Positions 40,987 through 54,307 of a stretch of 64,000 bases of DNA are shown here, in pieces. Under the pieces are notes generated by a model. It saw only the letters and a list, made by a program, of their open reading frames with translations, was not told the origin of the DNA and ran no database searches. Every line of letters begins with the position of its first letter. Within the stretch, counting starts at the first letter, position 1. The translations under genes and the position numbers were made by a program. The stretch is from contig CAWEZH010000002.1 in assembly GCA_963813535.1 (NCBI GenBank), positions 192,001-256,000 of the forward strand, in the 5' to 3' direction. Source of the DNA: an uncultured Chloroflexia bacterium (GTDB taxonomy: Bacteria > Chloroflexota > Limnocylindria > Limnocylindrales > CSP1-4).

Positions 40987-42315
40987 TCAGCCGAGGAGCG
41001 TCTCTCCGACGAAGCCACCTTCGGACGCCCCGGGCGGGATGGCGAAGATCGCCGACCCGATATGCCGGATGTACTCATTGAGCAGGTCCGGACCGAGCGA
41101 TCGCTGCAGGGCGATGAACTGGCTAGGCGAGCGCTGATAGGCGAGGAAGAACAGACCGGCATCGAGTCGGCCGTAGGGCGTGTTCCCGTCGACGTAGTTG
41201 TAGCCGCGCCGCAGGATCCGGACGCCGCCGTTGGACGACGGGTGGGCCAGGCGGACGTGGGCGGCCGTGTCGATGACCGGCGCGCCATCGGCGCTCGCGT
41301 CGAAGTCGGGCGTGGTGAACTCGTCGCCGCCGCTGAGGGGCGCGCCCGGTCCCTTCGAGCGCCCGATGATCGTCTGCTGCTCGGCGAGCCGGACCCGATC
41401 CCAGGACTCGATGAGCATCTCGATCTTGCGGACCACCAGGTAGCTCCCGCCGGAGAGCCACGCCGGCTCGCCGGTCGGTACCCAGACGTGATCCTCGAGA
41501 GCGGCCGTGTCGTCGGCCAGGATGTTGGCGGTCCCGTCCCTGAACCCCATGAGGTTTCGGGGTGTCACCTGGGTGGTCGTGGTCTTCGACGTCCGCCCGA
41601 AACCCATCTGCGACCAGCGGATCGCCGCCCGGCCAAAGGCGATGCGCGATAGGTTGCGCACCGCATGGACGGCCACCTGGGGATCGTCGGCGCAGACCTG
41701 GAGACACAGGTCGCCGTGACTCCACTCCGCCTTGAGGGCGTCGCCGACGAACGGTGGGAGACGCTCCAGCTCGGGTGGTCGTCGGGCTGCGACTCCGTAT
41801 CGGTCGACCCCGTCCTTCTCGAACACCCCGGGCCCGAACCCGATCGTGATGGTCAGGCCACTGGCCGTGAGGTCGAGGGCTTCACCCGTATCTTCGGGCG
41901 GCGACTCGGGATCGCCGCCGATGGCCCCGGACGCACTGGTCTCGAGTCCTTGAGTCATCCGAGACGCCGCGTATGACCAGTCCCGGAGCAAGCCGACCAG
42001 GCCCTCCCGATCGGTCCCGTCCGCGATGTCGAAGGCCGCGAAATGGAGGTGGTCCTGGACCGGCGTCGTGATGCCGGCCTGGTGCGGACCGTAGAACGGA
42101 TAGGCCGTGGAGCCACTACTCGAACCCGTAGTCCCGGGTGCCGGATCGCCCGGACGCACGCCGAGCAGGGGACCGGCGAGGCCCCCGACGACCAGCCCGG
42201 CCGTCCCGGTGGCGGCCGCTCCGAGGAGCGCGCGCCGGGACAGACCACGGCGTCCATCCGTCTCCGGCTCGGGCCCCGCGGGCGCCGGACGCTCGGCGAC
42301 CTTGGGCTCGGTCAC
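40987..42315 (-). CDS. efeB: Dyp-type heme peroxidase EfeB with Tat signal
   Basis: LSRRALLG Tat motif, HQAGITTPVQ, RNLMGFRDGTAN, HVRLAHP, ILRRGYNY. Confidence 0.92.
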   Translation of the reverse strand: MTEPKVAERPAPAGPEPETDGRRGLSRRALLGAAATGTAGLVVGGLAGPLLGVRPGDPAPGTTGSSSGSTAYPFYGPHQAGITTPVQDHLHFAAFDIADGTDREGLVGLLRDWSYAASRMTQGLETSASGAIGGDPESPPEDTGEALDLTASGLTITIGFGPGVFEKDGVDRYGVAARRPPELERLPPFVGDALKAEWSHGDLCLQVCADDPQVAVHAVRNLSRIAFGRAAIRWSQMGFGRTSKTTTTQVTPRNLMGFRDGTANILADDTAALEDHVWVPTGEPAWLSGGSYLVVRKIEMLIESWDRVRLAEQQTIIGRSKGPGAPLSGGDEFTTPDFDASADGAPVIDTAAHVRLAHPSSNGGVRILRRGYNYVDGNTPYGRLDAGLFFLAYQRSPSQFIALQRSLGPDLLNEYIRHIGSAIFAIPPGASEGGFVGETLLG

Positions 42316-43543
42316 GACAGGATCGTGCTCGTCAGCTGCGAGAGCGGCTCGGCCAGCGCGTTGATCAGGTTCGTCAGATCACGCTTGTCCGCGTCGGTCA
42401 GCTCGCTGTACGTCACGAACCCCTTCTGGAGATCGCCGTGCTTGGCGAGTCGCTCCTCAAGGGCTGAATAGCCATTATCGATGCGCTCGACGAGGTCGAC
42501 GCCGTCATCCCCCTGCGCCACCGCGAAGTCGCGGACGAGCGTGAATGCCATCTTCGAGCCCTCGACGTTGGCCGCGAAGTCCCACAGGTCCGTACCGGAC
42601 CACCAGTCCTCTTCGCCCGTGATCTTGCCGCTGGCAACCTCGTCGAGGAGGGCCATGGCGCCGTTGCTCAGCCAGTCGACGCCCTGGTCGTCGAGGTAGG
42701 TCGTGAAGTCCGCGGAGTGGACGTAGTCGTAGAGCTCGGTGACGTCGTCGACGAGCTGCTTCCCGAGATCGGCCCGCTGCTCGGGCGTCGATGGCTGCCA
42801 GTCCTGCCAGGCATCGGTCTCACCGTCTGCGTTGAGCGTGCCCTTGGCCGGCTCCCAGAGGTCCTTCTCGATCCGGTGGAAACCGGTCCACTCGAGGCCC
42901 TCGGCCTTGGCGTCGACCTCGCGATAGTCGATCCGCGGGTCGAGGTCGCCGAGCGCCTCCGCGACGGGCTCGATGCGCTCGTAGTGGGTGCGGACGTCGG
43001 GGAACTGGTCCTTGGCGGCCACGTCATCGCCGGCGACGTAGAGGTCGACGAACCCCTTGGTTGCCGGCACGAGCTCGGCGACCTGATCCTTGACGAACGC
43101 CGCGTAGGAACGGACCGCCTCCTGCTTGACCTCCGCGTCCGCGACCGGAGATGGCCACCCGCTCGCCCGTCACCGTGAAGGCGTTGCGTCCGACGCCGGC
43201 TCCGACCATCCCGGGCTTGCACAGGGTGACGTAGCTGCCGGGCTGCACCGTCGCGGTCAGTGTCCGGGACGTGCCGGGGGCGATGTTCTCGACCTCGCCG
43301 ATGATCCGCAGACCATCCTCGGCCATGAGATAGAACTCGGTCACCTGCGAGCCCCGGTTCGTCACATCGAACGCGACCGTTCCGCTTGCGGCTTCGTTCG
43401 ACTGCCACCTGGCAGGCGTCGTCCGTCGACGTGACGGCGATCGCGCCACCGGTGACCGCGGCGTTCGGGACGCATGCGGCGATGGCCAGTGTCGCTGCCG
43501 CGGCGATCAGGGCGGGGCGACGGGCAAGGCGGGCCGGGGTCAA
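42312..43543 (-). CDS. efeO: Iron uptake lipoprotein EfeO (cupredoxin + imelysin-like), frameshifted
   Basis: TTG overlapping the efeU stop; lipobox AIAAC; EFY..GEVENI..CKPGM; YERIEPVAE, WTGFHRIEKDLW, KITGEED. Confidence 0.88.
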
Positions 43544-44470
43544 GACTCTCCTCGACTGATCGACGGGGTCGGGTTGACGATCGCCGGGCGTTGGGGTGCG
43601 CCGGCGCGATCGCGACGAAGGAAGATCGTCCCGACGACCACCAGGTAGGTCAGCCAGGCGATGACCTCGAGCCAGGACATCTCGCGGCGCCAGTCCGATC
43701 GTGCCCTTCAGCAGCGCGGCGAGCGCACTGTCCGGTGGGATGGCGTCGCCGATCTGGAAGGCCCAACCGAACGGGAAGCCGGCCAGCCCGACAGCGACGG
43801 TGCCGGTCACAGGATCGATCGGCGCCGCTGCGGTGAATGGCCCAGGCAGGACGCCCGCCTCCTGGAGGTCGTGGATGCCGTAGGCGAGGACACCTGCGGC
43901 GACGACGATCAGGCAGATGCTCGTGACCGTGAAGAACACACGGAGGTTGATGCGAACCATGCCGCGGTAGATGACGAACCCGAGCACGACGGCGACCAAC
44001 AGGCCGGCCAGCGCGCCGGCGAGGGCATCCGCTCCACCGCCGAGCGAGCGAACCATCGACCAGAGGAACAGTGCCGTTTCGACGCCCTCCCGGGCGACCG
44101 AGATGAAGCCGACCAGGACGACGCCCCACAGGCCGCCCGTCGCGAGCGCTCGGGCCATCCCCTGTTCGAGCTCGCCGCGCAGACCACGCGCGGCGCGCTG
44201 CATCCAGAAGACCATGCCGGTGACCAGCGCGACCGCGAGGATCGACAGGGACCCGCCGATGATCTCCTGTGCTTCGAAGCTCAGCGTGTACGCGCCAAAG
44301 GTCAGGACGAACCCGAAACCGAGCGACAAGCCGATGGCGAGGCCGATGCCCAGCCACAGGCGGGGCAGGACGTCACGTCGCTCGGAACGGACGAGGAACG
44401 CGACGAGGATCCCGACGACCAATGCGGCCTCGAGACCCTCGCGCAGGCCGATGACGAAGGTGGCGAGCAC
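43540..44470 (-). CDS. efeU: Iron permease EfeU/FTR1 (frameshift near 43685)
   Basis: Two RExxE motifs (REGLE, REGVE), GIHDLQEAG. Confidence 0.92.
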
Positions 44471-51414: not shown

Positions 51415-52038
51415 ATGACCGACGAGCACCAGCACGAGCACGACCACGACGGCGGCGATGAGCACCATCACCACGAGCATCGCCCGATGTCGTATGAGGA
51501 GGCGGTCGAGGAGTTCCGCTCCGACAAGGACGAGTTCTTCCGTTCGAACCCGAACAGCCCGATCCCGGAAGGGGAGCGCGCCGGCTTCACCGGCTTGCCC
51601 TATTACCCCGTCAGCACCGCACTCCGGTTCGACGACCTGCCGCTCGAGCCGTACACCGGCGGTGAGCCGTCGGACTTCCAGATCCCGACCTCGGACGGTC
51701 GACTCCGTCCGGCGCATCGGGCCGGCGTGCTGCGGTTCGATGCCGACGGTGAGTCGCGTCAGTTGACGGCATACACGTTCGACGGCGGGGACGGTCAGTC
51801 ACTGTTCGTGCCGTTCCTGGATCAGACGAGCGGCCGCGAGACCTACGGCGCCGGGCGCTATCTCGACCTGGAGCCCGAGGACGACGGCACGTACTCGCTC
51901 GACTTCAACCTCGCCTACCACCCGTCGTGCGTGTACGACCCGAAATTCTCGTGTCCGCTGACGCCCGCCGAGAACCGCCTGCCGATCCGTGTCGAGGCCG
52001 GTGAACGATTGCCGCCGGAGCCTGCTGCGGCCGGATAG
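51415..52038 (+). CDS. DUF1684 family protein with His-rich N-terminus
   Basis: LFVPFLDQTSGRETYGAGRYL, LDFNLAYHPSCVY..CPL. Confidence 0.9.
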   Translation: MTDEHQHEHDHDGGDEHHHHEHRPMSYEEAVEEFRSDKDEFFRSNPNSPIPEGERAGFTGLPYYPVSTALRFDDLPLEPYTGGEPSDFQIPTSDGRLRPAHRAGVLRFDADGESRQLTAYTFDGGDGQSLFVPFLDQTSGRETYGAGRYLDLEPEDDGTYSLDFNLAYHPSCVYDPKFSCPLTPAENRLPIRVEAGERLPPEPAAAG

Positions 52039-52062
52039 CGCTGCGCGTTCCGCTCTGCGGGA

Positions 52063-53469
52063 TCAGGGGCGGCGGCCGCCTCCGCGTGGTGCGGTACTCG
52101 TCGGGACCTGCGTGGATCGCCGGCGGCCCGTACCCGACGTCGGACGGGGGTTACGCAGGAAAGTCGGGAGGTCGAGGCCGTCCTCGCTCGGGTCGAGCGC
52201 GGGCAGCTGAGGCTCGGCGTGCTGGACAGATGCGGCGCGGGCTGGCTCAGGACTGGGAGCAGGCTCCGGCTGCGTGGCCGACGCCTCGCGGCCGTTGGAA
52301 GCGTGGGCCTCTACCTCGTCTCGAGGCGCTGCGTCGTGGCGGGGAGGTGCGTCGTGGCGGGGAGGGACCAGGTGGCGGGCACTCGGCTCCGGCCGCGGAT
52401 CGTGTCGGCTCGTCGGTTCGGGTCGCCGTCGACCGTCGAGCCCGGTCGCGATCAACGTGATGTGGACCTCGCCGTCGGACACCTCGCCGACGCTCGCGCC
52501 GAAGATGACGTTCGCCCGGGGATCGACCGAGGCGCGGATCTCGTCCGCCGCCTGTCGGACCTCGCGCAGGCTCAGATCGGCCGGGCCGGCGATATGGAAC
52601 AGGACGCCGTGGGCACCGTGGATGCTCGACTCGAGCAGCGGGCTCGATGCCGCCTGACGCGCAGCCTCGACCGCGCGTTGTTCGCCGCGGCCCTGACCGA
52701 GCCCGATCAATGCCGGCCCCGCGTTCTGCACGACCGAGCGAACATCGGCGAAGTCGAGGTTGATGAGACCTGGCGACGTCAGCAGCTCGACGATGCCCTC
52801 GACCGCCTTGAGGAGCACCTCGTCGACGACGCGGAACGCCTCGAGCGCCGACGCCTCGGGGTCGATGACCTCAGCGACGTGGTCGTTCGGGACGGTGATC
52901 ATCGCGTCGACCTCGGTGATCAGACGCTGGGCCGCTTCCTCGGCGATCTCACGACGTGGCGTCCCTTCGAAATCGAAGGGCTTGGTCACGACGGCGACCG
53001 TCAAGGCACCCTGCTCGCGGGCCTTGGCTGCGACGATCGGCGCGGCACCCGACCCGGTCCCGCCGCCGAGACCGGCGGTGACGAACACGAGGTCGGCACC
53101 CGCGACCGCCTTCGCGATGCGATCGGCATTCTCTTCGGCAGAGCGTCGGCCGGTCTCCGGGTCGCCGCCGGCGCCAAGCCCGCGCGTCACGGCATCGCCG
53201 ATGCGGAGACGAACCTCGGCGCGGGACTCACGGAGGGCCTGGGCGTCGGTGTTGACGGCGACGAAGCCGACACCCGGGAGCCCGACATCGACCATGCGGT
53301 CGACCGCGTTGCCGCCGCCACCGCCGACGCCGACCACGAGGATCGCCCGCGTCTCGGGCCTTCGCCCGCGGCGAAGCCAGCCAGGGAGGGAAGCGAGGAT
53401 CCGCACCGTCAGGAGTCCCAGCAGGACGACGACGATGAGTTGGATGAAAGTCTGGGCCGTCGGGTCCAC
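52063..53469 (-). CDS. ftsZ: FtsZ paralogue with N-terminal transmembrane helix
   Basis: VVGVGGGGGNAV, NTDAQAL, GLGGGTGSG, INLDFADV (T7 loop), LIATG, C-terminal LDLPTFLR. Confidence 0.92.
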   Translation of the reverse strand: MDPTAQTFIQLIVVVLLGLLTVRILASLPGWLRRGRRPETRAILVVGVGGGGGNAVDRMVDVGLPGVGFVAVNTDAQALRESRAEVRLRIGDAVTRGLGAGGDPETGRRSAEENADRIAKAVAGADLVFVTAGLGGGTGSGAAPIVAAKAREQGALTVAVVTKPFDFEGTPRREIAEEAAQRLITEVDAMITVPNDHVAEVIDPEASALEAFRVVDEVLLKAVEGIVELLTSPGLINLDFADVRSVVQNAGPALIGLGQGRGEQRAVEAARQAASSPLLESSIHGAHGVLFHIAGPADLSLREVRQAADEIRASVDPRANVIFGASVGEVSDGEVHITLIATGLDGRRRPEPTSRHDPRPEPSARHLVPPRHDAPPRHDAAPRDEVEAHASNGREASATQPEPAPSPEPARAASVQHAEPQLPALDPSEDGLDLPTFLRNPRPTSGTGRRRSTQVPTSTAPRGGGRRP

Positions 53470-53593
53470 CTGACGAGTGTAGTCCGGGGTGGTGCGCGCG
53501 CGGCACGGCTAATCGTCCTCGGGTACGTGGTCCCTTCGGCGGTGACGGCGTCTGACGGGTGGCGGCAAGCGATGGGTAGGGCACTATCCATGG

Positions 53594-54307
53594 ATGCAGC
53601 TCGCCTCATCGCTCCATCGACTCGGCGGCTCCACCGTCGTCAACAGCTACCTCGTCGCCGACGCGACCGGCGTGACGGTCATCGACGCCGGGCTACCCGG
53701 CTACTGGAACGGACTGCCGAACGAACTTGCCGCGATGGGTCGGTCGATCGAGGACGTGCGCGGTGTCGTGCTGACGCATGGCGACACCGACCATGTCGGT
53801 TTCGCGGAGCGGCTCCGCCGTGAGCGAGGCGTGCCGGTGTATGTCCACCAGGCCGACGCTCCCCGTGCGCGCTTCGAGGTGAAGAAGCCGTCGTCGGGCT
53901 GGGGGCCGATGAAGGTCGGTCCGATCCTCGGATTCCTCTGGTACAGCGCCCGGAACGGGGCACTCCGGATCCCGCCACTCAGCGAGGTGGTGCCGTTCGA
54001 CGATGGCGCCACGCTCGATCTGCCGGGCTCGCCGCGCGTGATCCACATCCCGGGTCACACCCCGGGGAGCGCCGCGATCCACGTGCCGGGCGTCGATGCG
54101 CTGTTCGTCGGTGATGCGCTGACGACACGGAGCGTGCTGACCGGTGAGACCGGACCGCGCATCGCGCCGTTCACGCTCGACCCGGAAGCTGCCCGAGCAT
54201 CGTGGCAGCGGCTCGACGGTATCGAGGCGCGCTGGCTGCTCGTCGGTCACGGCGATCCGTGGGACGGCGGCGTCGGCGAGGCGCTCCGGCTGGCGCGGTC
54301 GCGCTGA
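53594..54307 (+). CDS. MBL-fold metallo-hydrolase
   Basis: IDAG, THGDTDHVG, PGHTPG, VGDA, GHG. Confidence 0.9.
   Translation: MQLASSLHRLGGSTVVNSYLVADATGVTVIDAGLPGYWNGLPNELAAMGRSIEDVRGVVLTHGDTDHVGFAERLRRERGVPVYVHQADAPRARFEVKKPSSGWGPMKVGPILGFLWYSARNGALRIPPLSEVVPFDDGATLDLPGSPRVIHIPGHTPGSAAIHVPGVDALFVGDALTTRSVLTGETGPRIAPFTLDPEAARASWQRLDGIEARWLLVGHGDPWDGGVGEALRLARSR

Follow-up and report, generated by a model that had tools for sequence, protein, structure and literature searches.

A 64,000-nt stretch of contig CAWEZH010000002.1, from an uncultured bacterium of the class Limnocylindria (Chloroflexota), contains on its minus strand a gene for an FtsZ protein that probably carries a membrane anchor of its own. 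We call this stretch the window, and all positions are window positions unless contig coordinates are given; the gene, TM-ftsZ, and its product, the anchored FtsZ, are dissected in Table 1. The 468-amino-acid product of the open reading frame 52063..53469 (-) passes the NCBI ftsZ equivalog model TIGR00065 with 376.4 bits, against a cut-off of 295.2. An earlier reading made from the letters alone (hereafter the sequence-only reading) had listed three FtsZ motifs as intact, and all of them were located: GGGTGSG (residues 135-141), which is invariant across the anchored family alignment; the T7 loop INLDFADV (residues 236-243), whose N237, D239 and D242 do not vary among the 26 anchored FtsZs compared; and LDLPTFLR (residues 432-439), part of a C-terminal motif of the conserved C-terminal peptide (CCTP) type that a regular expression finds in 114 of 120 homologues, with three variants in addition. 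In the alignment with the canonical FtsZ of the same genome, DGLDLPTFLR stands opposite DDLEIPSFLR. The core superposes on solved FtsZ structures (Foldseek) with TM-scores of 0.92-0.96, normalized to the target, and a root-mean-square deviation of ~1.5 Å. By the criteria used, only three core substitutions (R41, V198 and L344) are specific to the anchored clade, and the polymer interfaces look canonical at the level of sequence. Judged by model score and by the tree position described below, the gene is a true FtsZ.

What sets the protein apart lies ahead of the GTPase fold. Solved FtsZ chains align to it from residue 33-44 onward only, so that ~30 residues more than usual precede strand S1. 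The ~40 residues, hydrophobic helix and basic stretch RRGRR (residues 33-37, after the helix) that had been read there are all present. The best 19-residue segment (residues 8-26) has a Kyte-Doolittle value of 2.56, an Eisenberg mean hydrophobicity of 0.72 and a hydrophobic moment of 0.08; over segments of this length starting at residues 6-12 the moment ranges from 0.04 to 0.16, as in a uniformly apolar rather than an amphipathic helix. The net charge is -1 over the seven residues before the helix versus +4 over residues 29-42, so by the positive-inside rule the N-terminus is predicted to be outside and the FtsZ domain cytoplasmic, the orientation already suggested by the sequence-only reading. 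An apolar helix of ~20 residues, a low moment and positive charge on the cytoplasmic side are the features of a signal anchor, that is, a single-pass segment with the N-terminus out and the C-terminus in. R23 is conserved in at least 90% of the family rows, R36 and R41 are invariant in the N-terminal alignment, where at least 90% of rows also share P29 and E39. Within the helix, R23 would lie ~5 residues short of the cytoplasmic boundary, close enough for an arginine side chain to contact the lipid headgroups. Given the family alignment, AlphaFold2 models one continuous helix over residues 3-34 (predicted local distance difference test, pLDDT: 86, 96 and 80 in its blocks of ten residues). After it come a flexible linker, with pLDDT below 50 at residues 34-39, and a confident core; the C-terminal linker is disordered from residue 347, and a short helix forms at the C-terminal peptide (mean pLDDT 78.2; predicted TM-score, pTM, 0.69). 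Hydropathy, charge distribution and the modeled helix together support a transmembrane-like extension.

Table 1. Features of TM-ftsZ and its upstream region (window positions)
Feature	Position	Strand	Remarks
TM-ftsZ gene	52063..53469	(-)	468 codons + stop; GTG start; first start codon of the open frame
Acidic N-tail, residues 1-7 (MDPTAQT)	53449..53469	(-)	Predicted outside; net charge -1; family pattern M/V-D-x-x-A-Q-T
Predicted transmembrane helix, residues 8-28 (FIQLIVVVLLGLLTVRILASL)	53386..53448	(-)	Apolar, with near-invariant R23
Juxtamembrane linker, residues 29-42 (PGWLRRGRRPETRA)	53344..53385	(-)	PGW and basic RRGRRPETR; leads into strand S1
Tubulin/FtsZ GTPase domain, residues 43-202	52864..53343	(-)	Pfam PF00091, E 7.7e-45; contains GGGTGSG
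FtsZ C-terminal domain, residues 251-345	52435..52719	(-)	Pfam PF12327, E 3e-28; T7 loop just upstream
C-terminal linker, residues 346-429	52183..52434	(-)	Pro/Arg/Ala-rich; disordered, pLDDT <50; length and sequence vary across the family
C-terminal peptide DGLDLPTFLR, residues 430-439	52153..52182	(-)	FtsA-docking type (predicted); conserved
Basic tail after the C-terminal peptide, residues 440-468	52066..52152	(-)	NPRPTSGTGRRR...GGGRRP
-10-type box TACACT	53476..53481	(-)	6 nt upstream of GTG; leaderless-type promoter (predicted)
Conserved upstream element	53504..53540	(-)	~37 nt, about -72 to -35 from the start; CGAAGGGACC ... GGACG.ATT..CGTG

Since the anchor lies at the very beginning of the protein, its reality depends on the start codon. 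Upstream of GTG 53469 the frame stays open for 13 codons, none of them an ATG, GTG or TTG, and 8 of 11 orthologues have an in-frame stop four codons before the start. All 11 orthologues, which have the same N-terminal length, share start codons at positions 1 and 59 only; codon 59 is already within the GTPase domain, past the first glycine-rich motif, and elsewhere no position is a start codon in more than 4 of them. Moreover, all 45 pairs compared have a ratio of nonsynonymous to synonymous substitution (dN/dS) below 1 over codons 2-42 (0.19-0.90), as compared with 0-0.26 over core codons 43-200, the ratios being approximate because dS is near saturation in distant pairs. The extension is under purifying selection. 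It is also conserved in homologues, as the sequence-only reading required: when a Kyte-Doolittle mean of 1.6 or more over 19 residues is taken as the threshold, a hydrophobic stretch precedes the GTPase domain in 114 of the 120 top-ranking database homologues. Of the six exceptions, two are fragments, one is a frameshifted call and three are calls that start inside the extension, and no full-length homologue without the extension was found among these 120. Eleven further 50%-identity clusters have the same anchored architecture. Contigs of two soil metatranscriptome runs (each 0.05 of sampled words) gave only short gene-body pieces over 52000-53700: one of 151 nt with 2 mismatches at 52554-52704, the remainder 88-95% alike, and none over 53368-53481. 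Contigs cannot reveal a start, so these pieces are neutral on it. From the comparative evidence, translation of the extension from GTG 53469 appears secure.

Public gene calls often misplace the start of this family (P0002, P0064, P0066, P0092, P0096, P0116 and others); some run upstream through the -10 box, and some (P0066, P0096, P0116) begin inside the extension. Such misplaced starts hide the transmembrane helix from annotation.

The region in front of the gene points to the same start. A TACACT box exactly 6 nt before GTG 53469 had been proposed as a promoter element, and it is there, separated from the start codon (53469-53467) by the spacer cgtcag (53475-53470). TA(G/C)ACT stands exactly 6 nt before the start in 14 of 17 orthologous loci, including the window's own, and the remaining three have TA(G/C)ACT at 7 nt, TAGTCT at 7 nt and TACACT at 9 nt. 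As a control we measured, for the 184 TA[GC]ACT sites of the 3.28-Mb genome, the distance to an ATG or GTG opening a reading frame of at least 150 codons: 27 lay at 6 nt, 26 at 7, 14 at 8 and 10 at 9, with at most 3 at 0-5 and 10-20 nt. For the looser pattern TANNNT the genome-wide counts were 199 at 6 nt and 157 at 7 nt versus 14-39 at 0-5 and 11-20 nt. Because the spacing peaks at 6-7 nt across the genome, a -10 box at this distance marks a common gene class here, and the box of the anchored ftsZ sits at the modal spacing of the leaderless-type genes. In other high-G+C bacteria, a -10 box 6-7 nt before the start codon is accepted as a sign of leaderless transcription. No Shine-Dalgarno-like purine run was found in the six bases before the start. 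By its sequence, the gene has its own promoter, with a predicted monocistronic, leaderless-type message starting at or next to GTG 53469. Farther upstream, an alignment of 13 upstream regions from different genomic contexts reveals a second conserved element, present in the window and at the same position in L114-L127, with the consensus CGACGAAGGGACC, ~10 nt, GGACG.ATTTCGTG, which may be the binding site of a regulator; with the patterns used, no further copies were found elsewhere in the genome. A search of 53300-53700 against Rfam gave only a chance-level snoRNA match (E 0.13).

The anchored protein is not the only FtsZ of its genome, as had been suspected from its isolated position. Two tubulin-domain matches were found, and the other one is a canonical ftsZ that lies directly after ftsA and before a YggS-type gene and ends in DDLEIPSFLRRK. 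This ftsA-ftsZ pair is located at G000:C2:331.5-334.7 kb (contig coordinates of the window's genome), outside the window and ~88 kb from the anchored gene, and the two FtsZ proteins are 50% identical over residues 43-439. FtsA is thus present in this genome (92.9% complete), in which Pfam models detected no SepF, MinC, ZipA, EzrA or ZapA; since these other tethers were not found, FtsA is the sole recognized partner for the C-terminal peptide that the anchored copy has kept.

To place the anchored copies, phylogenetic trees were built from the core only, the N-terminal extension being excluded. In a quick tree of 174 rows, 33 anchored and 11 canonical Limnocylindria FtsZs form one clade (Shimodaira-Hasegawa-like approximate likelihood ratio test, SH-aLRT, 99), and the anchor label requires a single change. 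A careful tree of 60 rows (LG+C20+F+G4) recovers the joint anchored and canonical Limnocylindria clade with support 94/91 and a clade of 32 of the 33 anchored rows with 99/95. The canonical copies group at 76/55 in that tree, and a single clade of the anchored copies with the family-1 canonical ones is not rejected by the approximately unbiased test (p-AU 0.46); a duplication before the split of the two Limnocylindria families sampled and one after it are both compatible with these values. Both tip and internal branches of the anchored copies are longer than those of the canonical copy, indicating faster evolution. The phylogeny that the sequence-only reading had called for thus groups the anchored copies with their lineage's own FtsZ, and descent from the FtsZ of the Chloroflexota class Limnocylindria is the best explanation of the trees. 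An origin in a phage or plasmid was considered and rejected: the gene nests in the FtsZ clade of the host lineage, and no mobile-element genes were found within about 12 kb of it.

Whole-length profile scores failed to separate anchored from canonical copies, and the distribution was therefore assessed with a profile of the extension alone (44 positions, 18 candidates scored per genome); the counts are floors, as the genomes are partly incomplete. In the window's family the profile matches 34 of the 401 genomes searched and 19 of the 148 with completeness of at least 90%. By genus, the matches include 12 of 32 genomes in the window's own (its own genome included), 5 of 7 in g22, 7 genomes in g9 and 3 in g71; 22 genomes reach E 5e-9 or better, and the other matches are weaker. 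Other searches, the whole-length one among them, also covered genomes flagged as unpublished, and no positive given here comes from those. In a phylum-wide sample of 401 genomes the profile matched only the genome of the window, another of its genus and, with a borderline 20 bits, a sequence that contains a stop codon, and none of 16 genomes of a small-genome sister family had an anchored-type match. Within the genomes searched, anchored copies were found in one Limnocylindria family only. The anchored FtsZ family comprises more than 110 distinct 90%-identity clusters, and the labels that homologues carry in their sources read "Candidatus Limnocylindrales/Limnocylindria bacterium" or "Chloroflexota bacterium". 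A conserved-motif pattern search of genome contigs matched canonical FtsZ of many phyla, the only orthologue there being L073, and a search of the ESM Atlas with residues 1-60 returned unnamed clusters only (best score 0.77).

Within the family, one subclade (P0128, P0137, P0170, P0203 and, in G357, L128) starts with MDWL(T/L)QYWPY and has kept the anchor and lost the FtsA-type C-terminal peptide; some of its members carry long C-terminal extensions, up to 609 amino acids in total. One genus member, G217, has two anchored ftsZ genes from different subclades (G217:C3:251954-253123 and G217:C2:984467-985705) in addition to a canonical copy. As for the tail past the C-terminal peptide, its median length is 26 amino acids and its median net charge +4 among the 114 motif-bearing homologues. 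The tail is conserved within subclades (P0005-P0050, P0052-P0083), in the forms FLRNPRPTSGTGRRR... and FLRK.RPP..RRR..EDQALTPRSASHSS. Conservation of such a Thr/Ser-rich basic tail suggests a further binding function or possibly phosphorylation.

The usual location of ftsZ, which is typical but not defining, is the end of the division and cell wall (dcw) cluster, beside ftsA. The anchored gene lies elsewhere. The sequence-only reading had noted that ftsA, ftsQ and mur genes were missing nearby, and indeed no dcw, division, wall or mobile-element genes were found among the neighbors across 38.5-64 kb. A DUF1684 gene is convergent with the anchored ftsZ, and a UvrD-HRDC helicase gene is also a neighbor; an MBL-fold hydrolase gene is divergent from it across a 124-nt spacer. 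Other neighbors encode a HAD hydrolase and an HTH protein and, farther away, there are iron-uptake, MFS, aminotransferase and ArsR genes. This synteny is common only to the three closest orthologues (L114, L115 and L073). Five others (L116, L117, L118, L119 and L122) lie between a convergent clpX and a divergent leuS, and the remaining loci have still other surroundings. The window's genome has clpX and leuS side by side with no gene in between (G000:C2:940655-943094). The contexts differ and the clpX/leuS site is empty here: the anchored ftsZ has thus moved as one unit, and the -10 box and the ~37-nt upstream element travel with it into the different contexts. ClpX is a known regulator of FtsZ in other bacteria; the orientation of clpX argues against its co-transcription with the anchored ftsZ. 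We sought the DUF1684/MBL junction without ftsZ in five genus members that lack the gene, and found only MBL paralogues in other contexts. An EfeUOB-like iron uptake cluster occupies 40987-44470 (-), where genes for a Dyp-type peroxidase, an imelysin (M75) and an FTR1 iron permease follow one another.

Taken together, these observations suggest that the anchored FtsZ is probably a functional, lineage-specific paralogue that has gained an N-terminal single-pass membrane anchor. From its sequence we infer membrane insertion, polymerization and the specialized role that had been proposed for it. The helix would insert with its N-terminus out and the FtsZ domain in the cytoplasm, and would tether the core through its N-terminal face, no more than about 12 residues from the inner leaflet. 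Restricted to movement in the plane of the membrane, the protein would polymerize there with GTP, and its C-terminal peptide would meet FtsA. At the division site, together with canonical FtsZ and FtsA, it would provide a permanent, adaptor-independent attachment or nucleation point for the filaments of the Z ring. Our preferred reading, a tentative one, is that it joins or seeds the Z ring as such an anchor or nucleator. Since a minority of related genomes carry the gene, it would be an accessory modulator and not the essential division FtsZ.

Several observations weigh against this interpretation. AlphaFold models the helix without a membrane, and a long helix is therefore not proof of spanning; Q10 and the conserved R23 sit within the hydrophobic stretch. 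The generic two-hexamer scan for sigma-70 promoters gave no sites and no recognizable -35 box, so that the promoter call consists of the -10 box alone. Monophyly of all 33 anchored rows is weak in the 60-row tree (62/19, and 64% of bootstrap trees). The distribution is patchy, and by the genome counts the gene appears dispensable in most relatives. Finally, no conserved operon partner was found among the orthologous loci, and with no partner gene, nothing ties the anchored FtsZ specifically to division rather than to some other membrane process.

The main functional rival is a system in which the anchored FtsZ would build filaments of its own with the N-terminal face to the membrane, hence "inside-out", opposite in polarity to FtsA-tethered FtsZ and bending or stabilizing the membrane in the opposite sense, for a process other than ordinary septation. 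The tether is indeed N-terminal and only ~12 residues from strand S1, and when an artificial membrane-targeting sequence is moved from the C- to the N-terminus of FtsZ, concave depressions reportedly turn into convex bulges (bioRxiv 2023.08.29.555414; PMC9111741). Outward bulges, or the wrapping of membrane tubes protruding into the cytoplasm, would be the expected deformations. The accessory distribution fits such a role, as does the loss of the FtsA-type peptide in the subclade mentioned above. However, the near clade, this gene included, keeps that peptide almost throughout, which points to an ordinary divisome partner; the core surfaces are nearly the same as in canonical FtsZ, making mixed filaments plausible; and no partner genes hint at another process. 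A homodimer prediction (two copies of residues 1-350, family alignment) scored 0.00 without controls and counts neither way. We regard separate inside-out filaments as unlikely, and we give the same low credence to the broader idea of a natural integral-membrane inside-out FtsZ that either seeds or orients the Z ring or bends the membrane oppositely into protrusions, vesicles or internal tubules. Were it true, two-dimensional diffusion of the monomers would allow nucleation at very low copy number, FtsA could still be recruited through the retained peptide, and a single protein would suffice to test on which of its faces the FtsZ filament produces force.

The remaining alternatives are less probable still. 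The hydrophobic N-terminus might not span the membrane, acting instead as an in-plane or peripheral anchor, an oligomerization helix or a cleaved targeting signal. The published natural self-anchoring FtsZs all use amphipathic helices, and the two polar residues inside the stretch would suit such a reading, but the low moment and high mean hydrophobicity are the opposite of what an amphipathic helix has, ~21 consecutive positions are apolar, and the modeled helix is 32 residues long. For a cleaved signal one would expect a basic n-region before the helix and a small-x-small motif after it; neither is present, and a basic cluster follows instead. Export would moreover separate the GTPase from its nucleotide supply. 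A non-spanning N-terminus is, in our judgment, quite improbable. It is very improbable that the gene is a redundant or decaying duplicate lacking a distinct function, in spite of its patchy presence and its faster evolution relative to the canonical copy: the frames are intact and the catalytic motifs invariant in 26 diverse members, the core is under the constraint given above, the sequence clusters are numerous, and a conserved promoter region of its own accompanies the gene into different contexts. Hardly credible, lastly, is an annotation artifact in which an ordinary soluble second FtsZ starts downstream. GTG codons do occur at positions 22 and 45 of the gene, and three homologue calls start inside the extension, but at each of these two positions only 4 of 11 orthologues have a start codon, L122 offers none after codon 1 until codon 59, purifying selection acts on the extension in every pair compared, and the -10 box keeps a fixed distance from codon 1.

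The mode of attachment of FtsZ, and the face that its filaments turn to the membrane, are central to the debate on whether FtsZ exerts a constrictive force or guides wall synthesis. N-terminal attachment has so far been represented by engineered constructs and a few peripheral amphipathic helices. The anchored family would add a natural, conserved, predicted integral-membrane version that keeps the FtsA-docking peptide and coexists with canonical FtsZ, a natural counterpart of the artificially membrane-tethered FtsZ of laboratory reconstitution. Its more than 110 sequence clusters all come from uncultured soil Limnocylindria. Questions that such a protein could address include the direction of curvature, nucleation in two dimensions, the treadmilling of a membrane-bound subunit and the co-assembly of paralogues.

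Compared with canonical bacterial FtsZ (B. subtilis and M. tuberculosis; PDB 2rhl, 2vam and 1rlu), the anchored copy has the same fold, GTP-binding and T7 motifs and C-terminal peptide, and differs by its 40-residue N-terminal extension with a hydrophobic helix and by the basic tail after the C-terminal peptide. Its gene, unlike canonical ftsZ, is predicted to be monocistronic, lies outside the dcw cluster, and has a leaderless-type promoter and an accessory distribution. Among artificial systems, Osawa and Erickson reportedly engineered, in 2011, an FtsZ with an N-terminal membrane-targeting sequence, a peripheral helix of the MinD type, and no C-terminal peptide, which formed "inside-out Z rings". 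The protein described here shares with that construct the attachment on the N-terminal side of the core; here it is natural, predicted to be integral, and dual-ended.

A tubulin-superfamily GTPase domain with N-terminal transmembrane helices has been described in SSO1376 of Sulfolobus solfataricus, a transposon-disrupted member of the FtsZ-like 1 family (Makarova and Koonin 2010, PMC2875224), and the anchored FtsZ resembles it in this combination, its own helix being a predicted one. The archaeal protein is not a bona fide FtsZ; in its family (FtsZl1) the divergent domain precedes a coiled coil and an alpha-helical C-terminal domain, and operon partners are of the vWA type (PMC2875224). The anchored protein, a true FtsZ by tree and model score, has the canonical FtsZ architecture and is placed inside true FtsZ in the trees, and no vWA neighbors were found around its gene; it does not belong to FtsZ-like 1. 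In the literature searched, whose coverage leaves out most subscription journals and supplements, no description was found of a true FtsZ with a transmembrane helix.

The closest functional parallels are FtsZs with amphipathic helices. Atribacter laminatus RT761, of another phylum, has a conventional ftsZ by ftsA and a stand-alone FtsZ with a predicted amphipathic N-terminal extension (Katayama et al. 2020, PMC7736352). As in our genome, there are two ftsZ genes, the extended one stands alone and N-terminal membrane binding is proposed; the two extensions are set apart by the uniformly hydrophobic, transmembrane-type helix with positive-inside flanks predicted here. OdinFtsZ1 of Odinarchaeota binds the membrane through a 13-residue N-terminal amphipathic helix and showed no interaction with SepF, whereas its sister paralogue uses an adaptor (EMBO J 2025, PMC12583498). 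It is likewise a natural paralogue with direct N-terminal membrane binding beside an adaptor-dependent sister copy, but it is archaeal and amphipathic, and the bacterial-lineage protein here also keeps an adaptor-binding peptide. The word "transmembrane" does not occur in that paper, which mentions chloroplast FtsZ1 among natural self-anchoring FtsZs (PMC12583498). In Mycoplasma group 1E, N- or C-terminal amphipathic helices are reported, N-terminal in 10 of 12 sequences (bioRxiv 2023.08.29.555414). These FtsZs are self-anchoring too, but they lack an FtsA-binding peptide, are the only FtsZ of the cell and have a peripheral anchor, whereas here the anchor is predicted to be integral, the peptide is retained and a canonical copy coexists. 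The hydrophobic moment of 0.04-0.16 keeps the anchored FtsZ out of the amphipathic-helix class. It would nevertheless work as those proteins do, by direct anchoring, without being one of them.

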